Assembly (NCBI RefSeq): GCF_013315695.1
Contig: NZ_CP054353.1
Strand: one strand, 5' to 3'
DNA from: Escherichia coli
GTDB taxonomy: Bacteria > Pseudomonadota > Gammaproteobacteria > Enterobacterales > Enterobacteriaceae
DNA length: 64,000 nt
The notes beneath the pieces were generated by a model, which saw only the letters and a program-made list of their open reading frames with translations, was not told the origin of the DNA and did no database searches. A program made the translations under genes and the position numbers. Each line of letters starts with the position of its first letter. Positions within the stretch are counted from its first letter, which is position 1. This document shows positions 268-14,533 of this stretch, piece after piece.

Positions 268-1383
268 TTATTCCTGTTGCGCTATCCATTCAGGAATTTT
301 TAATTCCAGCTCAAGCCGCGTGGTGAAGCCGCTGTCGTCGATGTTGTGCTCCACCTTCGCCAGTACCCAGTCCTCCGCGTCGATGTCACTCTTGAAACCG
401 GATACCGTGCCGCGCATTTCGGGGTACAGGTCGGGGCGACCGCGTGCCAGCGTGATGGAGAACTCAGCCGCGCCGCGCTGTAGCTGCTGCCATTTTGCCG
501 CCGCTGCACGGCGTGCGGCCTCCTCGTTTTTGAAGGTTTTACGCATGACGTACACATTGCCGTCTGCGCCCTCCATGTAATCCCCCTCGCGGCTGCTGCT
601 TTTCTCCTTTTTTGTTTTTTGGGCAGAACCACGTTTTGTCACGCTGACTTTTTTCTTTTTGCCAAAGTCCAGATCCAGCCAGTAAGCGCGCACCCCCGTG
701 TACGCCTGCCGGTCTGCAATGCGGAAGTGATGGCTGTCACCGCTGCTGCGGGTGATGGCGAATGAGGGCAGCGGCTTTCCGCTGGCGCTCACCCCCTGTC
801 CGGGCACGATGAAAAGCAGGGCACCGTTTTTGACGGTGGCGATGGCGCCCAGCATGTCCGCCATGCGCGTGAGAAACGAGATGTCACTTTCCTCCGTCTG
901 GTCGGCGTGGTCGATTTCCACCTCTGCCAGCGAGGCGCTGATTTGTGCCTTCAGTCCGTAGCGGTACGCGATGGCAGAAACAACCTGTCCCACCGTCACG
1001 TCATGCCAGGACACTTCACGCTTCACGTTGAACTCCTGCCGGAAGTCTGCGCTGCTGGCCGTGATGGTGAGCCTATCCGGTGGTCCCTCATGTGTCACCT
1101 CGTCAACGATGAAGGTTCCCTTGTCTGTCAGCGCCTCACCTTTCCAGCCCAGCGCCAGACCCAGCGTCTGTCCGCGCTTCGGGAGTTGCACTCCGCCGTC
1201 GCAGTCGTCAATCGTGAGGGTTAACTGGTCCGCCTCAAATCCCCGGTTGTCGGTCATCGCCAGCGAGATGACCCGTCGGGTCAGCGCCGCGTTTTCCGTG
1301 CCCTTAACCGTGATGGAAAAATCAGGGATCTTCACGCACTCTGACAGACCGTTCAGGTATCCGCTTACGTCCGCAGGGTTCAT
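268..1383 (-). CDS. gpD: P2 gpD-like tail protein (late control gene D family)
   Basis: ORF track 268..1566. Start moved to the internal ATG (MNPADVSGYLNGLSECVK...) with GGAG upstream. At 371 aa, size and sequence resemble P2 gpD. Followed by ogr as in P2. Confidence 0.8.
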   Translation of the reverse strand: MNPADVSGYLNGLSECVKIPDFSITVKGTENAALTRRVISLAMTDNRGFEADQLTLTIDDCDGGVQLPKRGQTLGLALGWKGEALTDKGTFIVDEVTHEGPPDRLTITASSADFRQEFNVKREVSWHDVTVGQVVSAIAYRYGLKAQISASLAEVEIDHADQTEESDISFLTRMADMLGAIATVKNGALLFIVPGQGVSASGKPLPSFAITRSSGDSHHFRIADRQAYTGVRAYWLDLDFGKKKKVSVTKRGSAQKTKKEKSSSREGDYMEGADGNVYVMRKTFKNEEAARRAAAAKWQQLQRGAAEFSITLARGRPDLYPEMRGTVSGFKSDIDAEDWVLAKVEHNIDDSGFTTRLELELKIPEWIAQQE

Positions 1384-1455
1384 CGCAATTTCTCCGTCTG
1401 TGTCTTCGTCCGGCGAAATACTCCCACGCGCACGGAGGCGCTGTAATCCTGCGTA

Positions 1456-1481
1456 TGTTGTCGGAGAACGGTGAGAACAGG
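1456..1481. promoter_or_regulatory. Candidate late-promoter activator site (dyad) shared by divergent gpD and sheath genes
   Basis: TGTTGTCGGAGAACGGTGAGAACAGG, an imperfect dyad TGTTGTC-N10-GAGAACA. A 23/26 identical copy lies at 20014..20039. It is centred about 78 bp from the sheath ATG and about 85 bp from the D ATG. Confidence 0.5.
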
Positions 1482-1545
1482 CAGCGCGTGAATGCGGGGC
1501 TGTTTTTCGGGAGGATGTCGCCACACAAAACACCAGGAGGTGCTC

Positions 1546-2727
1546 ATGAGTGAAACACGCTTTCACGGTGCACGCGTCAAAGAAAACACCGACCTTGTGA
1601 CCGCGATTAATGACATTGATTCCAGTGTCATCGGTATCGTGGCCACGGCGGACGATGCAGACAGCGACGCGTTCCCGTTAAACAAACCCGTATTGATCAC
1701 CCGCGTGGCGAATGTGCTGGGTAAGGCAGGCACAACAGGCACGCTGTACAAAACGCTCAAGGCGATTTCCGACCAGACCAGCCCGAAGGTTATCGTGGTG
1801 CGTGTGGCTGAAGCCGGAGAGGAAGGTGAGACACAGGATCAGCTTGTCATCGGTGGCTCGCAGGCTGACGGCAGCTACACGGGCATGTATGCCCTGCTGG
1901 TTGCTGAACAGGACGAGAGCATTGGTTACCGCCCGCGCATTCTGGCGGCTCCCGGCCTGGATACCGAAGCAGTCACATCCGCCCTGTGCGTCATTGCGGA
2001 CAAGCTCCGCGCCTTTGTGTACGCCGGATGTAACGGGTGCGACACGATGGCGGAGGCAATCACTTACCGTGCGAAGTTCTCCGCGCGTGAGCTGATGCTG
2101 CTGTGGCCTGACTTCATTGCCTACAACCCGGTGAGCGGAAATAACGAAACATTTCCGGCAGCGGCGTATGCGTGCGGGTTGCGTGCGCGGATTGACAGTG
2201 AACAGGGCTGGCACAAGTCACTGTCCAACGTGGCGCTGAAAAATGTTCTCGGTATGTCGCAGCAGGTGTTCTGGTCGTTGCAGGCCGAAGACAGTGATGC
2301 GAACAACCTGAACAACAAGGAAATCACCACGATTATTCGCCGTAACGGCTTCCGCTTCTGGGGGAACCGTACTGCCGAAACCAGCGACTACATCTTTGAG
2401 GTGTACACGCGCACAGCGCAGATTCTGGCAGATACCATCGCTGAGGCGCAGTTCGAAACCATTGACGAACCGCTGACCCCGGCGAACGTGAAGGACGTGA
2501 TTAGCGCCATCCGCGCAAAACTCAACGCCCTGGTCACCGCCGGGAAACTCATCGGTGCGGAGTGCTGGTATGACGTGCTGGACAACGGCACGACGGATTT
2601 GCGTCAGGGGCGCGTGCGCATCCGCTACAAGTACACGCCAGTGCCGCCGATGGAAGATCTGACGCTGTATCAGACCTTCACGGATGAGTATTTCGACTCC
2701 GCTTTTGCAACGCTGGGAGGTGCGTAA
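1546..2727 (+). CDS. gpFI: Contractile tail sheath protein (P2 FI-like)
   Basis: ORF track 1492..2727. Start set to ATG 1546 (MSETRFHGARV), preceded by AGGAGG. Collinear by eye with P2 FI (FPLNKPVLIT, GWHKSLSNV, RRNGFRFWGNRT, YTRTAQ, YKYTPVPP). Confidence 0.92.
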   Translation: MSETRFHGARVKENTDLVTAINDIDSSVIGIVATADDADSDAFPLNKPVLITRVANVLGKAGTTGTLYKTLKAISDQTSPKVIVVRVAEAGEEGETQDQLVIGGSQADGSYTGMYALLVAEQDESIGYRPRILAAPGLDTEAVTSALCVIADKLRAFVYAGCNGCDTMAEAITYRAKFSARELMLLWPDFIAYNPVSGNNETFPAAAYACGLRARIDSEQGWHKSLSNVALKNVLGMSQQVFWSLQAEDSDANNLNNKEITTIIRRNGFRFWGNRTAETSDYIFEVYTRTAQILADTIAEAQFETIDEPLTPANVKDVISAIRAKLNALVTAGKLIGAECWYDVLDNGTTDLRQGRVRIRYKYTPVPPMEDLTLYQTFTDEYFDSAFATLGGA

Positions 2728-3243
2728 ATGGCTGTACCACGTTACGTTCGCCAGTTCACGCTGTTTGTGAACGGCAAAAACAAAATCGGCACGGTGACAG
2801 GCGTCACTCTGCCCAAGCTGACCCGAAAAACCGAAGCCTATCGCGGTGGCGGGATGCTGGGTGCGGTGCATATTGACCTCGGACTGGATGACGGCGCACT
2901 GGATGCCTCGTTCACCACCGGTGGGGTTGAAAAAGAGCTGCTCCAGGAATACGCCACTGACATTAACGAAGTGGCGCTGCGCTTTGTGGGTGAGCTGTTC
3001 ACCGATGGTGAGGAAAGTCAGCTCCTTGAGGTGGAGATGCGCGGACGCATCACGGAAATCGACCGTGGCGAAACCAAACAGGGCGACACCACACAGTACA
3101 CCTTCGCCGTCAAAAACACCTACTACAAGGAGTCGGTGGATGACAGTGATGTGACAGAAATCGACCTGCTGAACTTCATCTACAAAAAAGACGGCCAGAA
3201 CGTCTTTGGTGACCGCGTGAGTTCGGCGCTCGGTCTGAACTGA
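2728..3243 (+). CDS. gpFII: Tail tube protein (P2 FII-like)
   Basis: ORF track. Abuts the sheath stop codon (TAAATG). 171 aa, in the position and size of FII. Confidence 0.85.
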   Translation: MAVPRYVRQFTLFVNGKNKIGTVTGVTLPKLTRKTEAYRGGGMLGAVHIDLGLDDGALDASFTTGGVEKELLQEYATDINEVALRFVGELFTDGEESQLLEVEMRGRITEIDRGETKQGDTTQYTFAVKNTYYKESVDDSDVTEIDLLNFIYKKDGQNVFGDRVSSALGLN

Positions 3244-3289
3244 CAGCATTAACAGGGCGGCACATTGTGCCGCCACAGGAGAAAGAAAA

Positions 3290-3673
3290 ATGGCAGCAAA
3301 GAAAGATGACATCATGAACAGCGAAATCGTCGCAGGTGACACCACCACTGAAAACATCGATGTGGCAGAGGAAAAAACGGGGGTGAAGTTATCCTGCCCG
3401 GTGGTGCGTGGCGAACGCGTTATTGACTACGTGGAGATTGGCGAGGAAATCCGTCAGGCAGGCTCGTTGCGCGGGCTGTCTCTGATTGAGGTGCTGAACC
3501 TCAAAACGGACCCGATGATGACGCTGCTTTCGCGCGTGACCGCACCACGCCTGAAGCTGGCAGAAATCCAGACACTGGACACCGGTGATTTCGTGGCGCT
3601 GGCGACTATGGCTGCGAATTTTTTTGCTCCCACGGAGTCTGCGAAACCGTCCGTGGCGGTGATGGAAGCGTAA
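3290..3673 (+). CDS. gpE: Tail assembly chaperone (P2 gpE-like)
   Basis: ORF track. A 127-aa acidic protein between tube and tape measure, carrying a T7 slippery run near its 3' end. Confidence 0.8.
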   Translation: MAAKKDDIMNSEIVAGDTTTENIDVAEEKTGVKLSCPVVRGERVIDYVEIGEEIRQAGSLRGLSLIEVLNLKTDPMMTLLSRVTAPRLKLAEIQTLDTGDFVALATMAANFFAPTESAKPSVAVMEA

Positions 3674-3837
3674 TCACGCTGGCGAAGTTCGACAACGTTG
3701 AAGAACTGGTCGCTGATATAGCAGTCGTGTTTAACTGGTCGCCCGGCGAGATATTCTCAATGCCTCTCGTCGAGGTGATGAGCTGGCGTGAGCGGGCGGC
3801 GCAACGTAGCGGAGTCCGCAACAGTGAAATCCCTTGA
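3290..3837 (+). CDS. gpE': Tail assembly chaperone frameshift product (gpE+E'-like, programmed -1 frameshift)
   Basis: Codons AAT TTT TTT GCT at 3617..3628. A -1 slip on the T run 3619..3625 opens a frame with no stop until TGA 3835..3837. The extension ends ...NWSPGEIFSMPLVEVMSWRERAAQRSGVRNSEIP and overlaps the tape-measure start. Confidence 0.75.
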
Positions 3838-6800
3838 TATTCGTGTCAGCTTTGGCGCAATTGACCGGCTGACATGCCCGACCGAAAACGCCCGCCGTCA
3901 GGTGGGCGCTCTCACTGAATCCCTTCAGAAGACGCAGAACAACATACAGGCGCTCGACAGACAGTCGAAGGTGTTCGATCGTGCCGCCGGAAATCTCAGT
4001 AAATACCGCGAACAGATTGCCCGCGCGGAGCAGAGGCTCGCCGGGCTGCGAAAGGCAGAGCAGAACGGTAACATCCTCTCCGAAAAGCAGCGCGAAACGC
4101 TGGCGGCACTCTCCGCGCGGCTTGAGCGCCTGAACGAGCTGCGCACGCGCGAGCGCGAAAAACTCCAGGCGGCGGCTGGCGAAATGCGTAAACATGGCAT
4201 TCTGCTTTCCGGCAGCAGCCGCACCATCGAAAGTGCCGTTCGTCGCACGCAGCAGTACAACGAGCAGCTCGAGCGTGAACGGCAGGCTCTGGCTCGCGTG
4301 ACGCAGGCACAGAGCCGCTATGAGGCCGCGAAGGCACAGGCGGAAAAACTGCGCAACACAGGGGCTGTGGCGATGGCGGCGGGTACAGGCGGCCTGTATG
4401 CGGCGCAGCGCATGATGGCTCCGGCGATGGAGTCCGAACAGCACGGTGCGGTCATCGCAGCCGGTTCGGGGGAAGGCGCACAGGATGGCGCACGTTACAC
4501 CCACATCATCCGTAACATACAGGCTGACGGTCTCGCTGATTTTGCCGGTGCTGCGGAGGCCGTGAGTGCGGTACGCAGCACGCTCGGCGCACTGGGCGAC
4601 ACCGGTGACAGGGAGCTTGAGCGCATCAGCCGTCGTGCGCTGGATATGCGGACCGTCTTTGGTGTTGATGTGCCGCAGAGCATTCAGGCCGCTGCCATCA
4701 TGATGAAGAACGGGCTGGCCGCCAGCAGTGACGAGGCTACTAACCTGATGACGGCAGGGATGCAGCGCATGTCCGCTGAAATGCGCGATGAACTGCCGGA
4801 AATTCTGCATGAGTATTCCACCCACTTCCGCAACATGGGCTTCACCGGCAGCGAGACAATGAGTCTGCTGGTTGAGATGGCAAAGCAGGGCAAGTTTGCG
4901 CTGGACAAAACCGGCGATGCCGTGAAGGAGTTCAGTATCCGTGGTTCGGATATGTCGAAATCCAGTGTTTCAGCGTATGAGACACTTGGCCTGAATGCCG
5001 AACGGGTGTCTGCTGCCATTGCTCAGGGGGGCAGTACCGCACGCCAGGCGATGCAGGTGACCGCCCGTGCACTGCTGGCCATCCGTGACCCGGCAGAGCG
5101 GGCGAACACGGCCATTGCGTTATTCGGCACCCCCGTTGAAGACCTTTCCGTTGACCAGATCCCGCAGTTCCTGAGGGCGCTGGCTGATGTTCGTGACAAT
5201 CTGGGCGATGTCACCGGTGTGGCAGACCGCATGGGGCAGACGCTGCGCGGTAATCTCTCCGGCGATATTCAGGCGCTGAGTGGTGCGTTCTCAGGGCTAC
5301 GCACGGACATCTTCGGTACTGTGACCGAGGATTTGCGCGGGCTGGTTCAGACGGTGAGCGCGTGGGTGACCCGGATGCGCGAATGGGTCGGAGAGCATCA
5401 GGCGCTGGTCAGGGTGCTGGTACTGGCGGGCGGGAGTGTTCTGGCGCTGTCTTCTACGTTCGGTGCGCTGTCACTGACGCTCGGGCTGATTGCGGGGCCG
5501 CTGGCAAAACTGCAACTGGGACTGGGGCTGCTGACGGGGGGCGGCGGCATTGGTGGTGCTGTCCGGCTTGTGTCTGCGATGGCGCTGCGCCTGACGGGGC
5601 TGCCTGCGCTGTGGGGGCTGGTCACGGGGGCGGTGTCGGTACTGGGTGGTGCAGTGGGGGCGCTGTTCAGCCCGGTCGGGCTGATTGTTGCCGCCCTGGT
5701 GGGCGGCGCGGTTCTGGTGTGGAAATACTGGGATCAGATCAGTGCGTTTTTTTCCGGCTTTTTTGCCGGAGTGTGGGAGGCGCTGCAACCGCTGCGGGAA
5801 GCCTTTGCGTCGCTGGCTCCGGTGTTCGGGCTGATTGGCGATGGCATCAAAGCCGTGTGGGAATGGTTCACCCGCCTGCTTGAACCTGCAAACGCCTCAA
5901 AAGAGACACTCGACAAATGCACCAGCGCCGGGGAGTCGTTCGGGAAAACGCTGGGGTGGGTCATTCAGAACATTGTGCTGGGGCCGCTGACACTGCTTCT
6001 TGATGGCCTCGGCACAGTGCTGAAGTGGCTGGGTGTTATCCCGGATGGCATCAGGGAAGCGCAGAAGGAGACGCAAAAACTCCAGGAGAGCGCCGCAAAA
6101 CAGGCCACACAAAAAGCGCCGGTTGCGTGGGAGTGGGATCCTGCACAGAAAAAAATGGTGCAGAAAACATGGTCGTGGTCATCAGATGCAGCGGAAAACA
6201 ACGGTGACAATAAACCCGCAATACCTGCCCCTGCGGTTCCCGGAGAGGTGAAGGGAACGTCAGACAATCCGGTCGGCAAACCCGGTAGTAAATCCCCGCT
6301 GGATGAGGCATGGTTCCGGCAGGGGATACAGAAAACCGCCAGCAACACCGGCGGGCTGCTTGAGGAAACCAAAAAACGTACTGGTCCCGGCGATATTGTT
6401 TTCAAAAACCTGCCCGGACCCGAAATCATTCACGGCGAGTGGAAAGCACCGCAGGTTATCCGGACAGTGCAGGCGGTATCGGCGGGCGGAGGACTGGCGG
6501 ATGCGCTGACAACGCTCTGGCAGAAACTCACCGGAAGACAGACTGCTTCACCCGTTCCGGTCGTGAATATTCCTGCGCCAGTGGAGAGAGTGGCACGTCA
6601 GGTATCCACGCTGCCACAGCCGCAGCACAACGAGGCAAATACAGAACTGGTTGCCGGTATTCAGCGCGTGCATGAGGCTGTGAACAGTCCGGGGGGAGAG
6701 ACGGTATCGCCTCCACCTGTGGTGAACGTTCTGATGCCAGCAGTGAATGTTCCTGCGCCAGTGGTGAGTGTGGCGCGTCAGGTATCCACGCTGCCGCAGC

Positions 6801-7288
6801 ACAACGAGGCAAATACAGAACTGGTTGCCGGTATTCAGCGTGTGCATGAGGCGGTGAACAGTCCGGGTGGAGAGACGGTATCGCCTCCACCTGTGGTGAA
6901 CGTTCTGATGCCAGCAGTGAATGTTCCTGCGCCAGTGGTGAGCGTGGCCCGTCAGGTATCCACGCTGCCGCAGCACAACGAGGCAAATACAGAGCTGGCT
7001 GCCGGTATTCAGCGCGTGCGTGAGGCTGTGAACAGTCCGGGTGGAGATGTGGCTTTATCTGTTCCTGTTGCGGAGGTTATCCGTCCACCGCTGCGACCGG
7101 AGTCCGTCAAAAAAGAAACCGCGCCACAAACGCAGGCTGCGGTATTTTCCGGTGAGATACACGTGCATCTGCACAACGTCAACACGCAGAATCCGCGTGA
7201 ACTGGCAAAACTGGTTGGCGAGGCTGTCCGCGAAGAGATGCGCAGACAGGTGCGTACAGGCATGAACAGCTTCCGTGACAGGGACTAA
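3824..7288 (+). CDS. gpT: Tail tape measure protein (P2 gpT-like)
   Basis: ORF track 3788..7288. The start is ambiguous: GTG 3788, or GTG 3824 (VKSLDIRVSFGAIDRL) with GGAG 9 nt upstream. Long helical N-terminal half, a Gly/Ala/Leu-rich hydrophobic core, and a position between E' and U. Confidence 0.9.
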   Translation: MKSLDIRVSFGAIDRLTCPTENARRQVGALTESLQKTQNNIQALDRQSKVFDRAAGNLSKYREQIARAEQRLAGLRKAEQNGNILSEKQRETLAALSARLERLNELRTREREKLQAAAGEMRKHGILLSGSSRTIESAVRRTQQYNEQLERERQALARVTQAQSRYEAAKAQAEKLRNTGAVAMAAGTGGLYAAQRMMAPAMESEQHGAVIAAGSGEGAQDGARYTHIIRNIQADGLADFAGAAEAVSAVRSTLGALGDTGDRELERISRRALDMRTVFGVDVPQSIQAAAIMMKNGLAASSDEATNLMTAGMQRMSAEMRDELPEILHEYSTHFRNMGFTGSETMSLLVEMAKQGKFALDKTGDAVKEFSIRGSDMSKSSVSAYETLGLNAERVSAAIAQGGSTARQAMQVTARALLAIRDPAERANTAIALFGTPVEDLSVDQIPQFLRALADVRDNLGDVTGVADRMGQTLRGNLSGDIQALSGAFSGLRTDIFGTVTEDLRGLVQTVSAWVTRMREWVGEHQALVRVLVLAGGSVLALSSTFGALSLTLGLIAGPLAKLQLGLGLLTGGGGIGGAVRLVSAMALRLTGLPALWGLVTGAVSVLGGAVGALFSPVGLIVAALVGGAVLVWKYWDQISAFFSGFFAGVWEALQPLREAFASLAPVFGLIGDGIKAVWEWFTRLLEPANASKETLDKCTSAGESFGKTLGWVIQNIVLGPLTLLLDGLGTVLKWLGVIPDGIREAQKETQKLQESAAKQATQKAPVAWEWDPAQKKMVQKTWSWSSDAAENNGDNKPAIPAPAVPGEVKGTSDNPVGKPGSKSPLDEAWFRQGIQKTASNTGGLLEETKKRTGPGDIVFKNLPGPEIIHGEWKAPQVIRTVQAVSAGGGLADALTTLWQKLTGRQTASPVPVVNIPAPVERVARQVSTLPQPQHNEANTELVAGIQRVHEAVNSPGGETVSPPPVVNVLMPAVNVPAPVVSVARQVSTLPQHNEANTELVAGIQRVHEAVNSPGGETVSPPPVVNVLMPAVNVPAPVVSVARQVSTLPQHNEANTELAAGIQRVREAVNSPGGDVALSVPVAEVIRPPLRPESVKKETAPQTQAAVFSGEIHVHLHNVNTQNPRELAKLVGEAVREEMRRQVRTGMNSFRDRD
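6551..7045 (+). repeat. In-frame tandem repeat inside the tape measure gene (174-bp unit, about 2.8 copies)
   Basis: Units lie at 6698..6871 and 6872..7045 (58 aa each: ETVSPPPVVNVLMPAVNVPAPVVSVARQVSTLPQHNEANTELVAGIQRVHEAVNSPGG, nearly identical). A partial variant copy sits at 6551..6697 with an extra PQ. Confidence 0.9.
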
Positions 7289-7301
7289 AGGAGACGCAAT
7301 T

Positions 7302-7760
7302 ATGATGATGATTTTTGGCATGTTTGTGTTTGAACTGAAAACGCTGCCGCATCAACAGATTCAACAAAACAAAACGTGGCGGCATGTGAAAAATGAGCGA
7401 ATCAACCGTTCTGCGGCCTGGCAGTATATTGGCGCAGGTGACGACCAGATCACGCTGTCCGGTCTGCTGTACCCGGAAATTACCGGCGGTGAGGTGTCGC
7501 TGACACTGCTGAACACCCAGGCCTACACCGGATGTCCCTGGCCGCTGATTGATGGTACGGGGCAGATTTACGGAATGTACGTGATTACGGGATTACAGAC
7601 CACCCGCTCCGAACTGGATCGCTACGGGAAGGCAAAAAAGATTGAGTTCTCCATCAGCTTTCAGCGGTGTGATGAGGATATGCGGGAGAGGCTTCAGTCT
7701 GCTTCTGCAGGTGATTTACTGAACACGCTTAAAGACAAAATGGCGATAGCGGCATTCTGA
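7302..7760 (+). CDS. gpU: Tail protein (P2 gpU-like)
   Basis: ORF track 7275..7760. Start set to ATG 7302 (MMMIFGMFVFELKTLPHQ) after AAGGAG, 14 nt after the tape-measure stop. Confidence 0.85.
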   Translation: MMMIFGMFVFELKTLPHQQIQQNKTWRHVKNERINRSAAWQYIGAGDDQITLSGLLYPEITGGEVSLTLLNTQAYTGCPWPLIDGTGQIYGMYVITGLQTTRSELDRYGKAKKIEFSISFQRCDEDMRERLQSASAGDLLNTLKDKMAIAAF

Positions 7761-7771
7761 ATAAAAAAAGA

Positions 7772-7792
7772 GGGAGTGTAAAAAGCACTCCC
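7772..7792 (+). terminator. Stem-loop after gpU (weak intrinsic terminator)
   Basis: GGGAGTG-TAAAAAG-CACTCCC followed by TTATT, 12 nt after the gpU stop. Confidence 0.45.
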
Positions 7793-7884
7793 TTATTGCC
7801 TTCATGGAAAAGAAGCAAATGTTGTCAATACATTCTGACTATATATAAATCGCCCGATGAAGGCAATGGTGATGTTCGGGAAAT

Positions 7885-7907
7885 AAAAAAGCCCTCACAA
7901 AGAGGGC
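7885..7907 (-). terminator. Orphan intrinsic terminator (minus strand)
   Basis: Plus strand reads A6-GCCCTC-ACAAA-GAGGGC, so on the minus strand a hairpin is followed by T6. No intact gene lies upstream of it. Confidence 0.5.
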
Positions 7908-8070
7908 GGCATGCATTGTGTGAAGATTTAATTTTTCTGCTTGCAGGGGGATTATATTGAACGGTATTCATTCAATGCAATATTTTTAATTGTCATTATC
8001 ATTAATGAAAATGTTTCTTGTGTTTTTGTTGCTCTGATTACAATCCCGTTTATTACTGTGTCTTTGCGGC

Positions 8071-8096
8071 AAAAAAAAAGCCCGCACGGGGCGGGC
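8071..8096 (-). terminator. Intrinsic terminator downstream of the tfa pseudogene (minus strand)
   Basis: Plus strand reads A9-GCCCGC-ACGG-GGCGGGC. On the minus strand a GC hairpin is followed by T9, about 45 nt after the pseudogene stop. Confidence 0.65.
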
Positions 8097-8140
8097 AAAG
8101 AATGTTTGCATGTGTAGAACAGTGCGGGATTATAAATATA

Positions 8141-8710
8141 TTATGCGTTCTGAAAAGTCCCCTTTGATGGAGATTCAGGCCATACCAGCGCATTATAACA
8201 ATCTTTATTCATCACGGAAGTGAACGTCAACTGCTGAAGTTCCCTAATATATTCAATCCACGTAGCCAACCTTCCCTTGTCTGCATTGCTGATGGTGCCG
8301 GGCAATAACTCAGATTGCCAGATTCTGATCCTCTCTTTTGCCTCCGGCAGCAGGGGATTTCGTTGTCATTCTGCTTTAGCCTGCCACTTTTCAGGTGGCA
8401 GCACATGACGAACAATATTTTCATCATCAAATATCCAGTTACCTGAGTCATCAGCACGTTGGTTAGCGTTAATATCAGAAGTATTAACAACACTAAAACC
8501 GACATGATTAAGTGTTGATGCCTCTCTGGTAATGGTGACAATAATATTATTTCGTTGTAAATCATTTTGATTTTATCTGGTCGAAAGGTCCCTGCTTCGT
8601 TATGTCAGTTTTATCGCCTTCAGAGGAAACCAGATTACTTTGTGCTTCTTTTTCTAACACATACAGTCCCGGAGTTAATATTGCCTGTTTTATGTTCTTG
8701 AGTGCATCAT
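8141..8710 (-). pseudogene. Tail fibre assembly protein (Tfa/TfaE-like) pseudogene with several 1-nt frameshifts
   Basis: Manual three-frame reading on the minus strand gives MMH / LKNIKQAILTPG...DQIKSK / MIYNE / NNIIVTITREASTLNHVGFSVVNTSDINANQRADDSGNWIFDDENIV...WQAKAE / ...LLPEAKERIRIWQSELLPGTISNADKGRLATWIEYIRELQQLTFTS...VWPESP. The pieces are collinear with remembered e14/Mu-type Tfa proteins. The 112-aa ORF 8227..8565 is only one of these frames. Confidence 0.6.
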
Positions 8711-8770
8711 ATTAATCTCTTACATATTGTATCTGGTGAAATTTATAATTTTCTGAAGCTGCCTGAAAGA

Positions 8771-8898
8771 ATTGAGTTTCCTGCAGGCTTTCAATGGTGT
8801 GATGAGGATATGTGGGAGAAACTCCAGTCTGCTCCTGCAGGGGGGGCTTACTGAACACTATCAAAGACAAATCTTCGTCGTTGATCGCATTCCCTTAA
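8771..8898 (+). pseudogene. Degenerate duplicate of the 3' end of gpU
   Basis: attgagtttcctgcaggctttcaatggtgtgatgaggatatgtgggagaaactccagtctgctcctgcagg... aligns at roughly 80% with gpU 7641..7760 on the same strand. The frame is broken. Confidence 0.7.
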
Positions 8899-8903
8899 CC
8901 TGA

Positions 8904-8938
8904 CGCCACCACCCCACACAGATGACGGGGTGGTGGCG
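8904..8938. terminator. 12-bp GC-rich stem-loop between the convergent tail and fibre gene sets
   Basis: CGCCACCACCCC-(11 nt)-GGGGTGGTGGCG lies between the gpU remnant (+) and orf98 (-). Only weak T tracts flank it. Confidence 0.5.
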
Positions 8939-8943
8939 TGATT

Positions 8944-9240
8944 TCACCAGTAACTAACCAGCAGCCAGAACAACAGGCATATTGCCACTGGTGCAGCAAA
9001 ATCCATCAGGCTTCCGGCATCCCACACGCGCGGATCAAAACCACCCCACCAGGGCATGTTAATTCGTTTCCCTTTCCCGAATTTTTCAATCCAGCGATAT
9101 TCTGCCTGGGTGTGTTCACGCGCAATGAAGAACGAGCAACCGGCTATCGCTCCGTAAACCCAGTTTCCCGTAAGAATGCCAGCCAGTACCTGCGCAGCCA
9201 CGGCACAAAGTGCATGAAGGACAGGCGTTATATCCATCAC
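8944..9240 (-). CDS. Small integral membrane protein, unknown function (three predicted TM segments)
   Basis: ORF track, 98 aa. Hydrophobic stretches at about aa 5-24, 26-40 and 78-97. Last gene of the fibre operon, at the position equivalent to P2 Z/fun. Confidence 0.6.
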   Translation of the reverse strand: MMDITPVLHALCAVAAQVLAGILTGNWVYGAIAGCSFFIAREHTQAEYRWIEKFGKGKRINMPWWGGFDPRVWDAGSLMDFAAPVAICLLFWLLVSYW

Positions 9241-9249
9241 TCCCTCCCT

Positions 9250-9528
9250 TCAGCTCCATTCCCGAAGCGGTGCTTCCAGCTCCACCACATAATCAGAGAA
9301 CACAGAAACATCAAACGTATCATCAAGAATACGAATGTTGACAAAATAACCGTCATTCCGGATACAGACAGGTTCTCCCTCTTCATTTTCCCCTGTTTCT
9401 GTATAGGTGAAACCAATTTCATCGACTAACAGTTTGTTCTGGAGGTCTTCATTTTCCTCCCAGCCAAGAGATGACAGGAGGGCTTTAAACTGCTGTTTGT
9501 CATGAAACTTCAAAGTCAAATCTTTCAT
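9250..9528 (-). CDS. Small acidic protein, unknown function (possible fibre chaperone or accessory)
   Basis: ORF track, 92 aa. Its start overlaps the tail fibre stop by 4 nt, implying translational coupling. Confidence 0.6.
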   Translation of the reverse strand: MKDLTLKFHDKQQFKALLSSLGWEENEDLQNKLLVDEIGFTYTETGENEEGEPVCIRNDGYFVNIRILDDTFDVSVFSDYVVELEAPLREWS

Positions 9529-11306
9529 ATTGCCTCTCTTAATTGCCTGTCATTTAATTCTTTATGCCATATGCGGAAATTACGAATGTGACCAAACAGA
9601 TGTCGTTCTCCAGTACTCGTTCGCCCTCCAATACGGATAATTGCGGAGTTCTGAATATATGACCATGTGGTTTTTGTTTCGCCGGATAACCGTCCGTTAC
9701 TGACTGAGCATGTAGACTGATCTGACTTTACTCGCATCCCTATAACCATTTTTTCAAGTGATGCGTTTTCGTTTACCCGCATGTTAGCCCCGCCTATATC
9801 GCAATAAGGAAATCCGTCGTAATCCGTCGAACGACCGAATCCAAGAATAATTTCCTCTCCAGTTTGATGACCACTGGTATTAAGAACACGCGGTGCTGCA
9901 TTTGGCGTTTTATACCAGTTCTTATGTACCTCACAAAGAACAGTAAAAGGAGGATTATAAAGATTATTCTTAACCGGAACTGTCACAATATCACTTGCAC
10001 GTGTTGCTGGTGTTGCACCCGATATAATAAATGATGATGCGCAGGGGCCATTTTCAACCTGAGGGGTGGACAGGAAAACATAATCTCCTGATTCAACGAC
10101 ACCACCTTCTTTCGGAGTGTATTGTATTGCCGATGTTATGTAGGACTCATCAATTGCCTGAATCGTTGCCTCTGCAAAAATCCAGCCGGTAACCTCATCT
10201 TTGTTAACTCGGGCAGTGATCCTGTCGGCAGCTCCTCCTGTGATTTTAACTGATAAAGATCGCGTATTAACAATGGCATATCCAAGGTTAGATGATGTGT
10301 TGCCATCGTAAGATTCAAACCTGATCCTTAACATGAGTTCCAGATCAGTTTTAAATCTGCACGATGTCGTCACGCACTTATTATCGCCTGAAACATCGAC
10401 GGCTCCGGTTACTGCAACTGATGCCATGTTAACAGGCAGGGACTGCCCAATCAGAGAATCGTTACAGACGAACTTTCCATAGGTAAAACCAGAACTGTCC
10501 GTCCCGGTTTCGGGAACATCCATATTTACCGACTTGCCCCAGTTGACCGGGGTTTCCGAATTGAGCATGTAGTTTGTTCTTTGCCCTTCAATAAGCAGTC
10601 CATCGCGTTCAAATCGCGGCTCATTAATTTCAGCTATTTTCAGTTCACCGGATTTATTGATATAGGTTGCCGTTGATGCGCGACTGAAACTAACCTGTTT
10701 ATCACTGGCAACCTGAACCACATCGTCACCAATGGTGATTTTTTTATAGCCCGGTGCGAACCCCGTAAGCATATCCAGTGAATCGTTAAACGGTATCCAC
10801 ACATCAGGCAGCGGCGGTACAGACTCCTTTTCCTGCGCAACATATTCTTCAACATAGGCGCGGGTGGCGAGCACGACAGAGGGATCAACTTTCAGTTCGA
10901 CAGACGAAGCACTGGAAACCACAACAATCATGCGAATCGTCTGCGTGCGCCCGCTTCCCTCGGTGAGTACAGGCTTGTAGGTTTCGGGGCAGTTCGCCAC
11001 GGCAATCATCACGCCGTCGCTGTCAAAAAGCCCAATCTCGCGGATCCAGAACCCCCCTTTATCTTCCGGGATAATCATCTCGGCGATAAGCTGGCTGGCA
11101 TCAGACGCGCTGATGCTCAGTTGATTCAATGGGGCGCTGTATACCGTGTTCACCAGATTTTCCATGGAAGCCTCCGGTTCCGGCAGGCTGCCGCCGCCAT
11201 CCCCCAGTTTCATGGTGGTGATGGATATTTTCGAGCCGCTGGCCACCGCCTTTGCCAGACGGGCGGCACCCTTGTCAGTCAGAACAGAAAAATATTTTAC
11301 AGTCAT
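9525..11306 (-). CDS. gpH: Tail fibre protein (P2 gpH-like N-terminus, unrelated AT-rich C-terminal receptor-binding part)
   Basis: ORF track. N-terminal ~150 aa collinear with P2 H (ITTMKLGDGGG, GFWIREIGLFD, IAVANCPETYKP, EGSGRTQTIRM). The C-terminal end (...GERHLFGHIRNFRIWHKELNDRQL) looks like a LamG/concanavalin-type fold motif; that is inference. Confidence 0.85.
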   Translation of the reverse strand: MTVKYFSVLTDKGAARLAKAVASGSKISITTMKLGDGGGSLPEPEASMENLVNTVYSAPLNQLSISASDASQLIAEMIIPEDKGGFWIREIGLFDSDGVMIAVANCPETYKPVLTEGSGRTQTIRMIVVVSSASSVELKVDPSVVLATRAYVEEYVAQEKESVPPLPDVWIPFNDSLDMLTGFAPGYKKITIGDDVVQVASDKQVSFSRASTATYINKSGELKIAEINEPRFERDGLLIEGQRTNYMLNSETPVNWGKSVNMDVPETGTDSSGFTYGKFVCNDSLIGQSLPVNMASVAVTGAVDVSGDNKCVTTSCRFKTDLELMLRIRFESYDGNTSSNLGYAIVNTRSLSVKITGGAADRITARVNKDEVTGWIFAEATIQAIDESYITSAIQYTPKEGGVVESGDYVFLSTPQVENGPCASSFIISGATPATRASDIVTVPVKNNLYNPPFTVLCEVHKNWYKTPNAAPRVLNTSGHQTGEEIILGFGRSTDYDGFPYCDIGGANMRVNENASLEKMVIGMRVKSDQSTCSVSNGRLSGETKTTWSYIQNSAIIRIGGRTSTGERHLFGHIRNFRIWHKELNDRQLREAI

Positions 11307-12079
11307 GAAAAAATCCTCAAAGAATCCTCCAGAAATACCACTGATGCTGTCAGGGTTCCGGTTGTGGCGGTCAGTTGCATCACCGCCTGTGGCTCCACGG
11401 TCACCGCATCATCGCCCGTAACCTGTAATCCCATGACAATCCCCGCATCGACAGATACCGACGGTGTCGGCGGGTAAATGGTGAGCATGTCGCCGTCAAA
11501 GAAAGCCGGAGATGCCCGGAACACCGAAACAGTCTCAACACCGGCAGAAGCGGCTGGCCAGATTGTTGTTTCACTGCCGTCGTGCATGCCGGAAAACACA
11601 CGTGCGACTCCCTGCGTATCCAGCATAATGTTCAGCGAGGCAAGGTGGCGGCTGACCGGACGGGCATCGTCGATCAGTCGTGTCAGCTCGGAGTACGTTT
11701 CCTCTGTGATACCCGCGTCCTGCACGCCAATATCAATGCGGAACGTGCCGCGCGGGTCGCCGTTCTGCCACCACTCCGTCACGTTAATGACATAGCCAAA
11801 GGGTTCAACCACACGCCTGATGGCGCTGATGGTTCCCTTATGGCGGTGGATTGCCCAGGCATCACGGATCACCTGGCGCTTTGTTTCTTCCGTCCAGTCA
11901 CGATCCCACCTGTCCACGGACAGCGCCCACGCCAGATAAGGCAGCAGGGCTGCCGGGCAGGTGTCAGGATCCCAGAGCTGGTTAAGGCTGACAGGTAATG
12001 CTGACAACCGGGCGGTTCCCCGCTCCACGCAGCGCATGAAATCGCTGGCTGAAGGGGGGAGAAGTGACGGTTCACTCAT
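11303..12079 (-). CDS. gpI: Baseplate/tail protein (P2 gpI-like, with C-terminal extension)
   Basis: ORF track 11303..12142. Start set to ATG 12079 (MSEPSLLPPSASDF), overlapping the gpJ stop. The motif LLPYLAWALSVD is typical of gpI. Confidence 0.8.
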   Translation of the reverse strand: MSEPSLLPPSASDFMRCVERGTARLSALPVSLNQLWDPDTCPAALLPYLAWALSVDRWDRDWTEETKRQVIRDAWAIHRHKGTISAIRRVVEPFGYVINVTEWWQNGDPRGTFRIDIGVQDAGITEETYSELTRLIDDARPVSRHLASLNIMLDTQGVARVFSGMHDGSETTIWPAASAGVETVSVFRASPAFFDGDMLTIYPPTPSVSVDAGIVMGLQVTGDDAVTVEPQAVMQLTATTGTLTASVVFLEDSLRIFS

Positions 12080-12968
12080 TGGTTCCCCCTGTGCTGACCG
12101 TGAACGATGTGCAGTACGCTGACTGCACATCACTGATAACAATATTCTGTGCGGGGCTGGTCAGTTCCACGCGCTGAACGCCCTGAACATGCAGTGCGGC
12201 CATGATGGCGGAGAGCGCGACATCGCGACCGATTTTGCCCTGTTCGGCAAGCCAGGTTTCCAGATTGTTTCTGGCGGCATTCAGGATGGGTTCCGACTCC
12301 GGCCCCGGATAAAAGTAAAGCCGGGCATCAATCTGATACCGTATGATTTCTGCGCTCTGCACCGTCAGACGGTCACCGACCGGGCGAACGTCTTCGGCAT
12401 TCAGCGCATTTCTGACCGTTGTCAGGAGTTCTTCGGTCGCCGTGCCGTCGCCTTCTGTGGACAACACTGTCACCACCACTTCCGCCGGTGCGGGGCTGGT
12501 TGCGCGCGCGTCCGCCACCTGACCGCTGGCACTGCGGGCAAAATATTCATACGCCCCGGTGGGACCGGCCACGCTGAGGCCATCAAATGCAGACTGCGCA
12601 CGCAGCCGCAGGGCGGAGTCGCTTTCCATGACGGCCTCCGTGGTGTCCATGGCCGGTGTGATGACCAGCCGCGCGGTGTTCATGTTGGCAGCGAGGTTGT
12701 CCAGGTCATCACCTGTGGAATGGCTCAGCATACAGGCCGCTGCGCCCTCATTAATGCGCTGGCGAAGCAGCAGTTCACGCAGCGCGAAAGCCTGGGCAAT
12801 GACCGTGAGCGGTTCGGACTCCAACGCCATGGCTGACCGGATGGCAGCCTGCTGTGTCTGTGGAAATGACGTAATGATGTCTTCTTTCACTTCCGCTAGG
12901 ATGACTTCAAAATCCGGCGTTTCAATAATCTGTGGTGTCGGCAGTTCCGACAGGTCAACGGCTGGCAT
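12072..12968 (-). CDS. gpJ: Baseplate wedge protein (P2 gpJ-like)
   Basis: ORF track, 298 aa, placed between gpW and gpI. Confidence 0.85.
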   Translation of the reverse strand: MPAVDLSELPTPQIIETPDFEVILAEVKEDIITSFPQTQQAAIRSAMALESEPLTVIAQAFALRELLLRQRINEGAAACMLSHSTGDDLDNLAANMNTARLVITPAMDTTEAVMESDSALRLRAQSAFDGLSVAGPTGAYEYFARSASGQVADARATSPAPAEVVVTVLSTEGDGTATEELLTTVRNALNAEDVRPVGDRLTVQSAEIIRYQIDARLYFYPGPESEPILNAARNNLETWLAEQGKIGRDVALSAIMAALHVQGVQRVELTSPAQNIVISDVQSAYCTSFTVSTGGTNE

Positions 12969-13320
12969 TGTCGCTCCTGAGTGTCAGTGTGTTCTGTACG
13001 GTTTCCAGGCTTTCTGTCAGTGTGCCGGTGAGGGTGATAACGGCTTTTCCGCCCGCCTCCCACTGAATGTCAACGGCATTCAGGGCGATGCGTGGCTCCC
13101 ACTGTGTCAGGGCAATCACCACGGCGCTCATGCACTGAAGGCGCGTGGTGGCATTCATCGGTGCATCCAGCAAATCCGGCAGCAGGCTGCCGTATTCCCG
13201 GCGCATCACCCGGCTGGCGAGCGGTGTTAACAGAATATCCCTCACGCTGTTCCACAGATGGTCCGTGTCGCTGAGCGTGCCGGTGGCCTCGGGGTTCATC
13301 CCCAGAAAACGGGCACTCAC
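12955..13320 (-). CDS. gpW: Baseplate protein (P2 gpW / T4 gp25-like)
   Basis: ORF track, 121 aa. Its start overlaps the gpV stop by 4 nt. Confidence 0.85.
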   Translation of the reverse strand: MSARFLGMNPEATGTLSDTDHLWNSVRDILLTPLASRVMRREYGSLLPDLLDAPMNATTRLQCMSAVVIALTQWEPRIALNAVDIQWEAGGKAVITLTGTLTESLETVQNTLTLRSDNASR

Positions 13321-13898
13321 TGCGGGCCTCCTGTGCTGTCACCGCCGCTCTTCACGCCACTGTGTTTGTGCGTGTGCAGCGTCACACCGTTTGAGGTGAA
13401 ATCACCGCCGCTGTGCGAGATACTGCCACTCATGGTTCCGCCTTCTGTCACCTCAATCGTTGTCGTCTTCAGATGGTTTGTGCAGGTGACGGTGGGGGTA
13501 TCCAGCGTCACGCCTGTTCCGGCCTGAATGGTGGCAGTTTTGATTCCGCTGGCGCTCAGTGCGCCAGCGTCCGCATCGTAGCGGAACACCGCGCCGTCAG
13601 GCGCTGTAACCACGATTTCCGTCAGGCTGCTGCCGGGCGCCGGATGTTCGCTGCTCCAGAGACTGCCGATGACGGACGCGGTCGCGGGGTCGCCACCGAT
13701 GCAGGCAATCATGACCTGTTCGCCCACGGCAGGCGGCAGCCAGACGCTGAACGCGCCCGCGCGTGGTGTGTTCCAGCGCAGCCAGTCGGTTTCCAGCTCT
13801 CCGCTGCGCACGCGAACGCGCCACGTTGTTTCGTCCACGGCAAAAATCACGCCCGTGCGGATGATATTTGCAAGCAGTCGCATGATTTCCGCTGTCAT
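13317..13898 (-). CDS. gpV: Baseplate assembly/spike protein (P2 gpV-like)
   Basis: ORF track, 193 aa; N-terminus MTAEIMRLLANIIRTGVI... Confidence 0.85.
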   Translation of the reverse strand: MTAEIMRLLANIIRTGVIFAVDETTWRVRVRSGELETDWLRWNTPRAGAFSVWLPPAVGEQVMIACIGGDPATASVIGSLWSSEHPAPGSSLTEIVVTAPDGAVFRYDADAGALSASGIKTATIQAGTGVTLDTPTVTCTNHLKTTTIEVTEGGTMSGSISHSGGDFTSNGVTLHTHKHSGVKSGGDSTGGPQ

Positions 13899-14533
13899 CG
13901 TGCTGCACTCCCCAGGGAACGGATAATCGCGTCACGCATCCGGCGTTCGTCGGCTGCGGTCACACCCAGCAGTTCACGCACCGGGTAGGTGGTCATCACG
14001 CCCGGTGTCACCTCGTCGCGTAACCCCGCCTGATGCACGCGGGCAATCCGCGCAGCCAGGCCATCAAAGCCCACCACAGCGCCTTCCGCATCTGAGCGCA
14101 TTTTTAACCAGCGATATGTGCGAAGACGCGCGAACATCGGCGTGCTTTTCTTGCTGGTCTGGCGGGCAGACATGGACGATACAGCGAGGTATCGTTCAAT
14201 ATCATCGCGGTAAAACGTCCTCAGTGCGCCGCCACGGTCAGGGTCGCGCCCGATGATGGCGCGGCCTTTCCGGTAACGTTTGTGCCCCCACTGGCGCAGC
14301 GTGCGGACCTCGCCGTTCCAGACAAACTTCACCTCCCGGCGGGTGTGCATTACCTGCTGTTTTCGCGCCGGATACGGCGAACCGTCTGCGTTCTTCTGCG
14401 TACGGATACGCGCCTGCTGGCTCTGGCGCAGCGCCTGCCCGACAGCCCTCGCCGTGCGTGCACGTCCGGCGGTGGAAAGTCCGTTCAGGATGTCGCGGAA
14501 AACCGCGTCCGGGTCATGCGTCGTCGTGTTCAT
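13895..14533 (-). CDS. gpS: Tail completion / virion morphogenesis protein (P2 gpS-like, longer than P2 S)
   Basis: ORF track, 212 aa, placed between gpR and gpV. Confidence 0.7.
   Translation of the reverse strand: MNTTTHDPDAVFRDILNGLSTAGRARTARAVGQALRQSQQARIRTQKNADGSPYPARKQQVMHTRREVKFVWNGEVRTLRQWGHKRYRKGRAIIGRDPDRGGALRTFYRDDIERYLAVSSMSARQTSKKSTPMFARLRTYRWLKMRSDAEGAVVGFDGLAARIARVHQAGLRDEVTPGVMTTYPVRELLGVTAADERRMRDAIIRSLGSAAR

Follow-up and report, generated by a model that had tools for sequence, protein, structure and literature searches.

The region at positions 8944 to 11306 of the window (the whole stretch of Escherichia coli DNA analyzed here, 64,000 nucleotides) is almost certainly a horizontally acquired three-gene cassette of the lambdoid side-tail-fibre type, carried by a P2-like E. 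coli prophage. The cassette consists of a fibre tip followed by two small genes, orf92 and orf98. On sequence comparison, orf92 would be a partner of the tip and orf98 a factor acting on the host envelope, and we regard the whole picture, i.e., the cassette origin together with both of these readings, as moderately probable. The features of the locus are as follows.

9525..11306 (-): fibre gene, 593 aa
10860..11306 (-): fibre residues 1-149, P2 gpH-type N-terminal (baseplate-attachment) domain; PF12571, GC-rich resident backbone
9525..10824 (-): fibre residues ~162-593, tip of the lambdoid side-tail-fibre type, almost certainly acquired; phrog_1419, megablast, GC 0.41-0.47
9996..10595 (-): fibre residues 238-437, predicted beta-sandwich domain related to the RcGTA head-spike fibre; NF048003
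9528..9971 (-): fibre residues 446-593, putative C-terminal ConA/LamG-like lectin domain; Laminin_G_3, mostly via homologues
9250..9528 (-): orf92, 92 aa, acidic cytoplasmic alpha/beta protein, candidate fibre-specific assembly or accessory factor
8944..9240 (-): orf98, small inner-membrane protein with three helices, probably starting at ATG 9237
8904..8938 (-): perfect 12-bp GC-rich hairpin without a U-tract, just past the orf98 stop; read from the sequence
8702..8880 (+): remnant of another gpU gene (3' end), probable scar of a donor P2-like phage; BLASTP against the resident gpU
8141..8610 (-): Tfa/gpG-type chaperone pseudogene with an in-frame TGA and its N-terminus gone; P2 gpG alignment
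8080..8096 (-): intrinsic terminator, 6-bp all-GC stem plus T9 run, closing the V-W-J-I-H-orf92-orf98 operon

Origin of the cassette

The three open reading frames were found where the original prediction had placed them, and its proposal that the fibre is a chimera was borne out. Residues 1 to 149 match PF12571, the P2-type tail-collar fibre N-terminus, over the full length of the profile (E 1e-56), and they are 97 to 100% identical to those of the sister P2-like prophages L002, L010, and L011. The rest of the protein, residues 148 to 593, matches phrog_1419 (E 6e-214), and the GC content falls from ~0.55 at positions 10850 to 11300 to 0.41 to 0.47 at positions 9350 to 10850. The C-terminal 248 aa of P2 gpH gave no tblastn match in the window. 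Judged by these comparisons, residues ~162 to 593 are of other origin than the N-terminal domain.

Several lines of evidence point to a lambdoid source. First, positions ~8955 to 10824, which reach from fibre codon ~162 through orf98, are 76 to 85% identical in nucleotides to the lambdoid phages phage 21, mEp460, and the ev-series, and the megablast homology to phage 21, mEp460, ev017, and others stops at ~10820 to 10824. Second, the tip, orf92, and orf98 fall in PHROG families 1419, 1361 (E 4e-42), and 1443 (E 1.5e-52), respectively; the two small genes had been described as unknown, and both proved to be conserved families rather than orphans. Third, the order tip-orf92-orf98, co-oriented and tightly spaced, was found in 147 of 162 fetched loci. 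Phage 21 has the same genes, order, and spacing (CPT_21_22, side tail fiber; CPT_21_23, hypothetical; CPT_21_24, putative membrane protein), and mEp460, ev017, ev207, and the PhiR series likewise carry the three-gene cassette. Relative to phage 21 and other lambdoid counterparts, orf92 is 85 to 91% and orf98 ~79% identical; the tip allele is 64% identical in amino acids to that of phage 21. Finally, when the slot was compared among sister P2-like prophages, as had been proposed earlier, the same frame was found to carry other tip alleles. The setting of the cassette differs in one respect: lambdoid fibres have a lambdoid Stf N-terminus and a long Ala/Ser/Glu-rich shaft, whereas here the cassette is mounted on a P2 gpH-type N-terminus with almost no shaft.

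Remnants of two other genes persist downstream. An intact Tfa gene is missing, as predicted, and a decayed gpG-like relic at 8141..8610 (-) aligns with residues 56 to 156 of P2 gpG (43.6%, E 5e-22) and gives a weak match to the C-terminal part of Caudo_TAP. The gpU relic matches the resident gpU at 47% over 47 aa (BLASTP, E 4e-11) and aligns as DNA to positions 7640 to 7760. Recombination almost certainly exchanged the outer portion of the P2-type fibre, beyond ~residue 162, and removed most of the Tfa/gpG chaperone gene with it. The cassette was probably delivered via another P2-like phage, leaving the gpU 3' end and the decayed tfa as scars. Such a swap of fibre tip and chaperone is ordinary mosaicism. 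The H-G pair of P2 (fibre plus Tfa-type chaperone, Caudo_TAP, PF02413) likewise combines an N-terminal fibre domain with a small downstream gene that is presumably required by the fibre, and it is a gpG-type gene of this kind whose relic persists in this prophage.

The fibre tip and orf92

The tip was detected by tblastn in 218 phage records, and its family occurs in about a third of complete E. coli genomes. It is built of beta-sandwich domains of a predicted polysaccharide-binding type. Residues 238 to 437 match NF048003 (GTA_spike_fiber) with 47.1 bits, above the NCBIfam cut-off of 36. This model is built on the RcGTA head-spike fibre Rcc01080 (PDB 6tb9), whose solved chain itself is only marginally similar in sequence to the fibre (phmmer, E 0.009); the domain belongs to a head spike in RcGTA and to a tail fibre here. 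The RcGTA head-spike fibre binds capsular polysaccharide (PMC10218006). A LamG-like end had been predicted for the fibre. The fibre itself scored 19 to 20.4 bits with Laminin_G_3 (PF13385), under the gathering threshold of 27.6, but 8 of 10 homologous tips match the model with E values of 0.01 or lower, the strongest being 1.3e-8. Among PDB entries, a profile of this C-terminal domain matched the pentraxin/LamG-like domain of ADGRG6 best (E 0.044). None of the PADLOC models matched the fibre at E up to 1.

Further analysis of orf92 agreed with the original prediction, which had called its product acidic and translationally coupled to the fibre: the pI is 4.16, and the stop codon of the fibre gene shares the sequence ATGA with the start codon of orf92. 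The protein is soluble and was modeled by AlphaFold2 with a pLDDT of 89.6. No family was found for it at E up to 1 in Pfam, including Caudo_TAP, or in PADLOC, and NCBIfam gave nothing significant. In 163 phage records, orf92 is always found directly after the tip. These records span lambdoid and P2-like phages as well as the virulent Drexlerviridae, T5-like phages, Queuovirinae, and Dhillonvirus, and homologues are found in VogelGryff, ESCO3, tinuso, and JeffSchatz; in Vequintavirinae, the gene behind the tip is a more distant version of orf92 (hhalign probability, 98.5%). This consistent adjacency across temperate and virulent lineages supports a fibre-specific assembly or accessory role, in keeping with the earlier suggestion of a new chaperone. 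We therefore read orf92 as a likely dedicated partner of the tip. It would be either a cytoplasmic assembly chaperone, which would functionally replace Tfa, or a small protein retained on the finished fibre; in either case translational coupling would have it made in step with the fibre.

A different possibility, to which we give appreciably less weight, is that orf92 forms part of the distal fibre structure itself, for example, as an adaptor that offers a docking site to a second, branching fibre protein. In many lambdoid prophages, as well as in VogelGryff and ESCO3, orf92 is indeed followed by a second fibre protein of 234 to 388 aa with a conserved N-terminus; for two such proteins the annotation reads endosialidase or lateral-tail-fibre chaperone. 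Moreover, the identity of orf92 tracks that of the proximal tip segment, residues 165 to 300 (rho 0.68), and not that of the neighboring C-terminal domain. However, the loci in this correlation are not independent and recombination breakpoints flanking the segment explain the covariation equally well, so we did not retain it as a sign of contact. Furthermore, orf92 occurs without a second fibre gene in the window and in phage 21, and a fold search gave no match to a structural protein.

Tip swapping is the main path, natural as well as engineered, to new phage host ranges, and chimeras often fail without the right helper. If orf92 is obligatory, it must travel with the tip into engineered phages and tailocins.

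The orf98 protein and its genomic contexts

The three hydrophobic segments predicted for orf98 appear as three helices in the AlphaFold2 model (pLDDT 92), and the chain ends within the third. The coordinates of the gene matched those predicted, with one probable correction: judged by the homologues, translation most likely starts at ATG 9237, which gives 97 aa instead of 98. The exact 97-aa protein is found on 75 public contigs. The family comprises 448 representatives at 50% identity, all of ~100 aa, and its clusters contain hundreds to over a thousand sequences, placing it among the commonest function-unassigned genes of E. coli prophages. An identity of 45 to 60% is maintained from Escherichia to Sphingomonadales. 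Twenty-seven positions are invariant, including H9, Q17, R41-E42, a QAEYRW motif, MPxWGGFD, D80, and P84, and the most conserved part of the protein is a polar loop. Searches of Pfam and NCBIfam gave nothing significant, the PADLOC defence and exclusion models gave no match at E up to 1, and ten distant relatives searched against Pfam gave sub-threshold noise. Neither the orf92 nor the orf98 family was found in the literature on HK97 and Stf chaperones, BASEL lateral fibres, lambdoid exclusion, RcGTA head-spike fibres, ECOR13 prophages, phage 21 with sitABCD, and small membrane proteins linked to KpsC/KpsS.

The orf98 gene (GC, 43%) lies on the same strand as the fibre, 9 nt past orf92, and is preceded by its own strong Shine-Dalgarno sequence; a promoter scan of the window found no promoter-like site 5' of it. 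The hairpin at 8904..8938 was absent from the output of the terminator scan. It had been suggested that orf98 occupies the slot of P2 Z/fun, the lysogenic-conversion gene that blocks T5. This equivalence failed. Fun(Z) resembles orf98 only in lying beyond the fibre genes of a P2-like genome; it is a protein of 528 aa encoded on the other strand, beyond the V-operon terminator, whereas orf98 (98 aa as annotated) is a lambdoid import co-transcribed with the fibre, and BLASTP between the two gave E 0.29.

Across genomes, orf98 is found behind several kinds of receptor-binding gene, in prophages of all three tail types. For example, in a P22-like E. coli prophage the order is ant-tailspike-orf98-dacD; orf98 is the last prophage gene, and a weak terminator-like and a weak promoter-like site lie between it and the tailspike. 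Other homologues follow a pectate-lyase tailspike, a P2/HP1-type fibre without orf92, gpJ, or a protein that precedes bAvd and a reverse transcriptase. We considered whether orf98 is specific to the tip and rejected this, as among 89 diverse loci the tip lies upstream in only 12 and orf92 in only 4. Its identity stays at 77 to 84% while that of the tip spans 38 to 99%.

Where virulent phages share the tip and orf92, orf98 is missing, and the 6947-like siphoviruses keep only a remnant of it that is truncated and frameshifted; intact distant homologues occur in presumably virulent Aeromonas jumbo phages. Chromosomal homologues are found in Leclercia, in Silvania, and in Aeromonas, where two lipid A acyltransferases are encoded nearby. 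Among 48 sampled alphaproteobacterial loci, Kps-type capsule genes accompany the homologue in 16, and in 13 of these 16 a tracked polysaccharide-locus gene lies on the same strand within 150 nt of it; the other two thirds of the 48 have no capsule genes within 7 kb. Seven conserved polysaccharide-locus genes were tracked, including KpsC/S-like and KpsD-like genes and an epimerase, and the counts are those of a re-count. An apparent cluster of 19 loci with an epimerase neighbor was smaller on that re-count.

Possible roles of orf98

It had been suggested that orf98 is a candidate superinfection-exclusion or receptor-masking factor, which it may be. The comparative evidence points to a host-envelope role for orf98 that is tied to lysogeny and not to fibre assembly. 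Four observations favor this: temperate phages keep orf98, in the virulent siphoviruses the gene is decayed, it fills the terminal slot after a P22-type tailspike, and some chromosomal homologues sit in capsule operons. Our tentative proposal, held at somewhat below even confidence, is that orf98 acts on an envelope glycan as a conversion or exclusion factor. It would work not on the fibre but on the host envelope, from the inner membrane, and would most likely alter or hinder the assembly of lipid-linked surface polysaccharide. The glycan bound by lateral fibres or tailspikes would thereby change, resulting in lysogenic conversion or in exclusion at the adsorption step. Against the proposal stand the intact homologues in the Aeromonas jumbo phages and the alphaproteobacterial loci with no capsule genes nearby. 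Moreover, since orf98 is conserved whatever the tip allele, it cannot hide one particular glycan epitope, and its target would have to be a shared step.

Known receptor-linked conversion and exclusion genes include P22 gtrABC and Sf6 oac after the tailspike, T5 llp by the pb5 gene, and cor of phi80 and N15. Homologues of orf98 directly follow a receptor-binding gene, and in the P22-like prophage the slot is that of P22 gtrABC. No homology of orf98 to GtrA, GtrB, Oac, Llp, or Cor was detected in the Pfam and PADLOC scans, and orf98 is far smaller than a glycosyl- or acetyltransferase, so it cannot alone be such an enzyme.

Some of the same evidence would also suit a superinfection-exclusion protein that acts at the inner membrane to keep phage DNA out, in the way of P22 SieA, T4 Imm, and HK97 gp15. 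In favor of this, orf98 is a small, polytopic inner-membrane protein, it is kept in temperate phages and decayed in virulent ones, and its tip-independent conservation suits a target downstream of adsorption. We nevertheless think a DNA-entry block improbable. No PADLOC or Pfam exclusion family matches orf98; the specificity of exclusion proteins is usually limited to one group of phages, whereas this family holds its 45 to 60% identity from Escherichia to Sphingomonadales; and the homologues encoded on chromosomes, within capsule operons and in core regions of Aeromonas, are hard to square with such a block.

Equally improbable, in our estimate, is a late lytic membrane protein that acts in holin- or antiholin-like lysis timing or in membrane-bound assembly or release of fibres or tails. 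The position of orf98 among co-oriented late tail genes, with its own ribosome-binding site and no upstream promoter, fits this idea, as do its ~100 aa and three transmembrane helices, which recall class I holins. In addition, a homologue lies directly before small proteins and a GH108 endolysin in a metagenomic siphovirus and probably also in a Comamonas prophage. On the other hand, the match to the holin family phrog_198 was not significant (E 0.11), orf98 lacks a charged C-terminal tail, and its conserved polar loop is unlike holins. In the sister prophage TUM9803, the lysis cassette is elsewhere, with a lysozyme and LysC annotated several kilobases away from orf98 and its neighbors; the 43%-GC orf98 is unlikely to be the resident holin. 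Virulent phages that share the fibre do without orf98, and its chromosomal homologues stand in nonphage contexts.

Returning to an action on the envelope glycan, a broader and more speculative reading, rather unlikely in our judgment, is that PHROG 1443 is an unrecognized small inner-membrane component of lipid-linked surface-polysaccharide assembly that was captured by temperate phages of all three tail types. This would explain the operonic position of the alphaproteobacterial homologues after KpsC/S-like and KpsD-like genes. Encoded behind a receptor-binding gene, the protein would reshape or switch off the same glycan to which the product of that gene binds. If this reading is true, the family would be a new generic conversion or exclusion factor at the level of adsorption. 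If orf98 alters surface glycans at all, it would represent a new class of lysogenic-conversion factor and would reveal a missing small component of Kps-type capsule loci.

A further observation, on the timing of expression, speaks against the envelope-glycan proposal. Packed among the late tail genes and with no promoter-like site on its 5' side, orf98 looks more like a gene expressed late in the lytic cycle than like a classical moron active in the lysogen.

Chimeric fibre and its imported cassette

The fibre is chimeric: its N-terminal domain is of P2 type (residues 1-149; PF12571, E 1e-56), residues 148-593 match phrog_1419 (E 6e-214), and a search of the window with the C-terminal part of P2 gpH gave no match. 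The GC content changes from ~0.55 to 0.41-0.47 over the junction. The original prediction of a P2-type N-terminus joined to an AT-richer, unrelated C-terminal part is thus borne out, as are the three open reading frames that it described.

Features of the fibre cassette and of the region downstream
9525..11306 (-): fibre, 593 aa
9250..9528 (-): orf92, 92 aa; its start overlaps the fibre stop as ATGA
8944..9240 (-): orf98, 9 nt past orf92; strong Shine-Dalgarno AGGGAGGGA
8904..8938: perfect 12-bp hairpin downstream of orf98
~8702..8880 (+): remnant of a second gpU (3' end), flanked by orf98 and the tfa relic; matches 7640..7760 at ~80% nucleotide identity
8141..8610 (-): P2 gpG/Tfa-type chaperone pseudogene, 5'-truncated (first ~35 codons gone), in-frame TGA
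8080..8096: strong operon terminator beyond the pseudogene

At the nucleotide level, homology to lambdoid phages extends over window positions ~8955-10824, from fibre codon ~162 to at most 11 nt from the orf98 stop codon. For residues 238-437 of the acquired tip, the NCBIfam model of the RcGTA head-spike-fibre domain gave a match above its cut-off; the RcGTA protein is known to bind capsular polysaccharide (PMC10218006). The fibre's final ~150 residues are ConA/LamG-like. Reading this end as LamG-like is reasonable, since 8 of 10 homologous tips matched, although the match is weak in the window's own fibre.

The two downstream genes had been described as unknown, but they belong to a known and common cassette. 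In phage 21 all three genes recur in this order, as side tail fiber, hypothetical protein, and putative membrane protein, and the order fibre-orf92-orf98 also occurs in mEp460 and in the ev-series and PhiR-series. Megablast matched 1821 of the 5426 complete E. coli genomes, the matches listed covering the cassette part of the query, and the exact chimeric fibre protein is present on 61 public contigs. A prophage with a near-identical cassette (IMGVR_UViG_2563366956_000015, from IMG/VR) is 100% identical in orf92, orf98, and the fibre N-terminus and 99.5% in the tip. In two sister P2-like prophages (E. coli TUM9803 and locus L011) the N-terminus is retained, and the tip is just 64-66% identical compared to 93-96% for orf92 and 87% for orf98. 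This means that the tip was swapped again inside an unchanged frame. The mosaic fibre is an ordinary, previously sequenced case of unrelated phages exchanging tail fibres; what interest remains attaches to the accessory families of orf92 and orf98, both widespread and uncharacterised.

As predicted, no intact Tfa follows the fibre, the gpG/Tfa-type gene being reduced to the pseudogene. Because the gpU and tfa relics sit downstream of orf98, the arrangement suggests that the cassette donor was another P2-like phage with gpU and orf98 already convergent.

The acidic protein behind the tip

The 92-aa protein is acidic (pI 4.16) and, through the ATGA overlap, translationally coupled to the fibre, as had been proposed. 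Its fold was predicted confidently as a small alpha/beta domain (pLDDT 89.6); comparison with PDB folds returned nothing informative, and the protein is not a member of Caudo_TAP (Pfam), the family of the usual fibre chaperone. The most telling feature of orf92 is its synteny. By tblastn, it was found in 163 phage records, always abutting the gene for this tip; virulent phages of the Drexlerviridae, T5-like, Queuovirinae, and Dhillonvirus groups are among them. A diverged 110-aa homologue lies behind the tip-bearing fibre of the Vequintavirinae phage JeffSchatz (hhalign probability 98.5%). Because it is kept with the tip over seven phage lineages and both lifestyles, orf92 would most simply be a factor required for its tip, whether as a chaperone in assembly or as a small subunit bound to it. 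The identity of orf92 covaried with that of fibre residues 165-300 (Spearman 0.68) but not with that of the neighbouring C-terminal domain (0.06). The pattern is compatible with contact to the proximal tip and, to the same degree, with conserved cassette flanks around a hypervariable receptor-binding core. A role as adaptor for a second fibre protein is a live alternative, because in many phages orf92 is followed by a second, short fibre protein, annotated as endosialidase or lateral-tail-fibre chaperone in two virulent phages.

Many lambdoid prophages have an extra short fibre gene between orf92 and orf98 (5289..5993 in locus L092, 4918..5958 in L094). It encodes 234 or 346 aa with a conserved MATSTVIP N-terminus and suggests branched lateral fibres.

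Contexts and candidate roles of the membrane protein

Because orf98 homologues begin MDITP and the exact 97-aa form is present on 75 public contigs, the true start is probably the ATG at 9237. The ~100-aa protein is predicted to form three long helices (pLDDT 92), in agreement with the three hydrophobic segments first noted, and its polar core is strikingly conserved, at H9, Q17, R41-E42, a QAEYRW motif, MPxWGGFD, D80, and P84. The family falls into 614 clusters when grouped at 90% identity and is covered by 448 representatives at 50%, all stand-alone and about 100 aa. A Pfam scan of the family matched no model, and orf98 matched no defence model. Its proposed equivalence to P2 Z/fun was ruled out: the two are unrelated in sequence, Fun(Z) has 528 aa and is encoded past the V-operon terminator on the other strand, and orf98 was imported as part of the cassette.

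Several trends were apparent in the genomic contexts. First, orf98 is independent of the tip allele: in 162 loci, tip identity ranged from 38 to 99% while orf98 stayed at 77-84%, and upstream of it in 89 more diverse loci, the tip family was found in just 12 and orf92 in just 4. Second, it trails unrelated kinds of receptor-binding genes in prophages of all three tail types. Homologues lie behind a pectate-lyase tailspike in Citrobacter, behind a P2/HP1-type fibre without orf92 in Aeromonas, and behind gpJ in Comamonas and Acidovorax. In E. coli SFAD3 (6190..6489 in locus L250) the homologue follows a P22-type tailspike and ends a P22-like prophage in the order ant-tailspike-orf98-dacD, in the slot that holds the O-antigen conversion genes gtrABC in P22. 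In Comamonas nitrativorans and Pigmentiphaga humi (loci L198 and L200, ~6785..8690), it stands between a ~380-aa protein and bAvd plus reverse transcriptase, inside a diversity-generating retroelement cassette. Third, virulent phages that share the tip and orf92 have no orf98. In 6947-like siphoviruses it persists only as a frameshifted, internally deleted relic behind the tailspike; in Escherichia phage 6947 this relic is unannotated and truncated (3962..4180 in locus L009), behind an unannotated 859-aa tail fibre/tailspike-like protein, and it was also matched in ST1UNAM, ZCEC08, HC8A, and PBM-2. Homologues in Aeromonas jumbo phages are intact but distant. Fourth, the homologue is chromosomal and outside prophages in several Aeromonas species, near two lipid A acyltransferases, and likewise chromosomal in Leclercia and Silvania. 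Finally, Kps-type capsule genes surround it in 16 of 48 alphaproteobacterial loci: Capsule_synth (KpsC/S-like), Poly_export/SLBB (KpsD-like), SIS+CBS (KpsF-like), and CTP_transf_3 (KpsU-like). In 13 alphaproteobacterial loci, at least one of seven tracked families (these four plus epimerase, UDP-glucose dehydrogenase, and a sulfatase-family protein) lay within 150 nt on the same strand.

Together, these comparisons speak for an autonomous cell-envelope function of orf98 and against its taking part in the folding of this one fibre. Its capsule-operon context and its position after genes for glycan-binding receptor proteins point above all to surface-polysaccharide assembly as the setting, and conversion or exclusion at the level of adsorption is therefore tentatively favoured. 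The original general idea of exclusion is thus reached, as a possibility short of even odds, by another route. Against such a role, orf98 is tightly packed in the late operon with no promoter detected, and its independence of the tip allele implies that the target would be a shared step and not an epitope. It seems unlikely that orf98 stops DNA from entering at the inner membrane. A late lytic or lysis-linked role, in line with the size, the three helices, and a placement ahead of lysis genes in two phages, is similarly improbable. Drawn from genomic context, the link of the orf98 family to capsule loci is unexpected and the more interesting lead.

Prophage setting

The cassette is located in a P2-like prophage whose modules stand in a rearranged order. 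The host is E. coli: further along the window, the ppsA-aroH region matches several E. coli chromosomes at 100% identity.

Modules at the start of the window
268..1566 (-): gpD gene, near the window start
3788..7760 (+): tape-measure gene and gpU, converging on V-W-J-I-H (-)

This order (268..7760 versus 8944..14533) is unlike that of P2 and is shared with TUM9803, where FI, FII, E, and E' lie upstream of the tape-measure gene and gpU on the same strand. The tape-measure gene contains a 174-bp tandem repeat (6563..7047 (+), 2.8 copies, 93% match) encoding three ~58-aa repeats close to the C-terminus. A ParM/StbA-type actin-like plasmid-segregation gene (24804..25763 (-)) adjoins the gpA-type replication gene (25840..28713 (-)) of an integrated P2-like prophage. 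A DUF3800 gene of low GC content (23450..24256 (+), 0.41), flanked by the portal/terminase genes on one side and the ParM-like gene on the other, is probably cargo.
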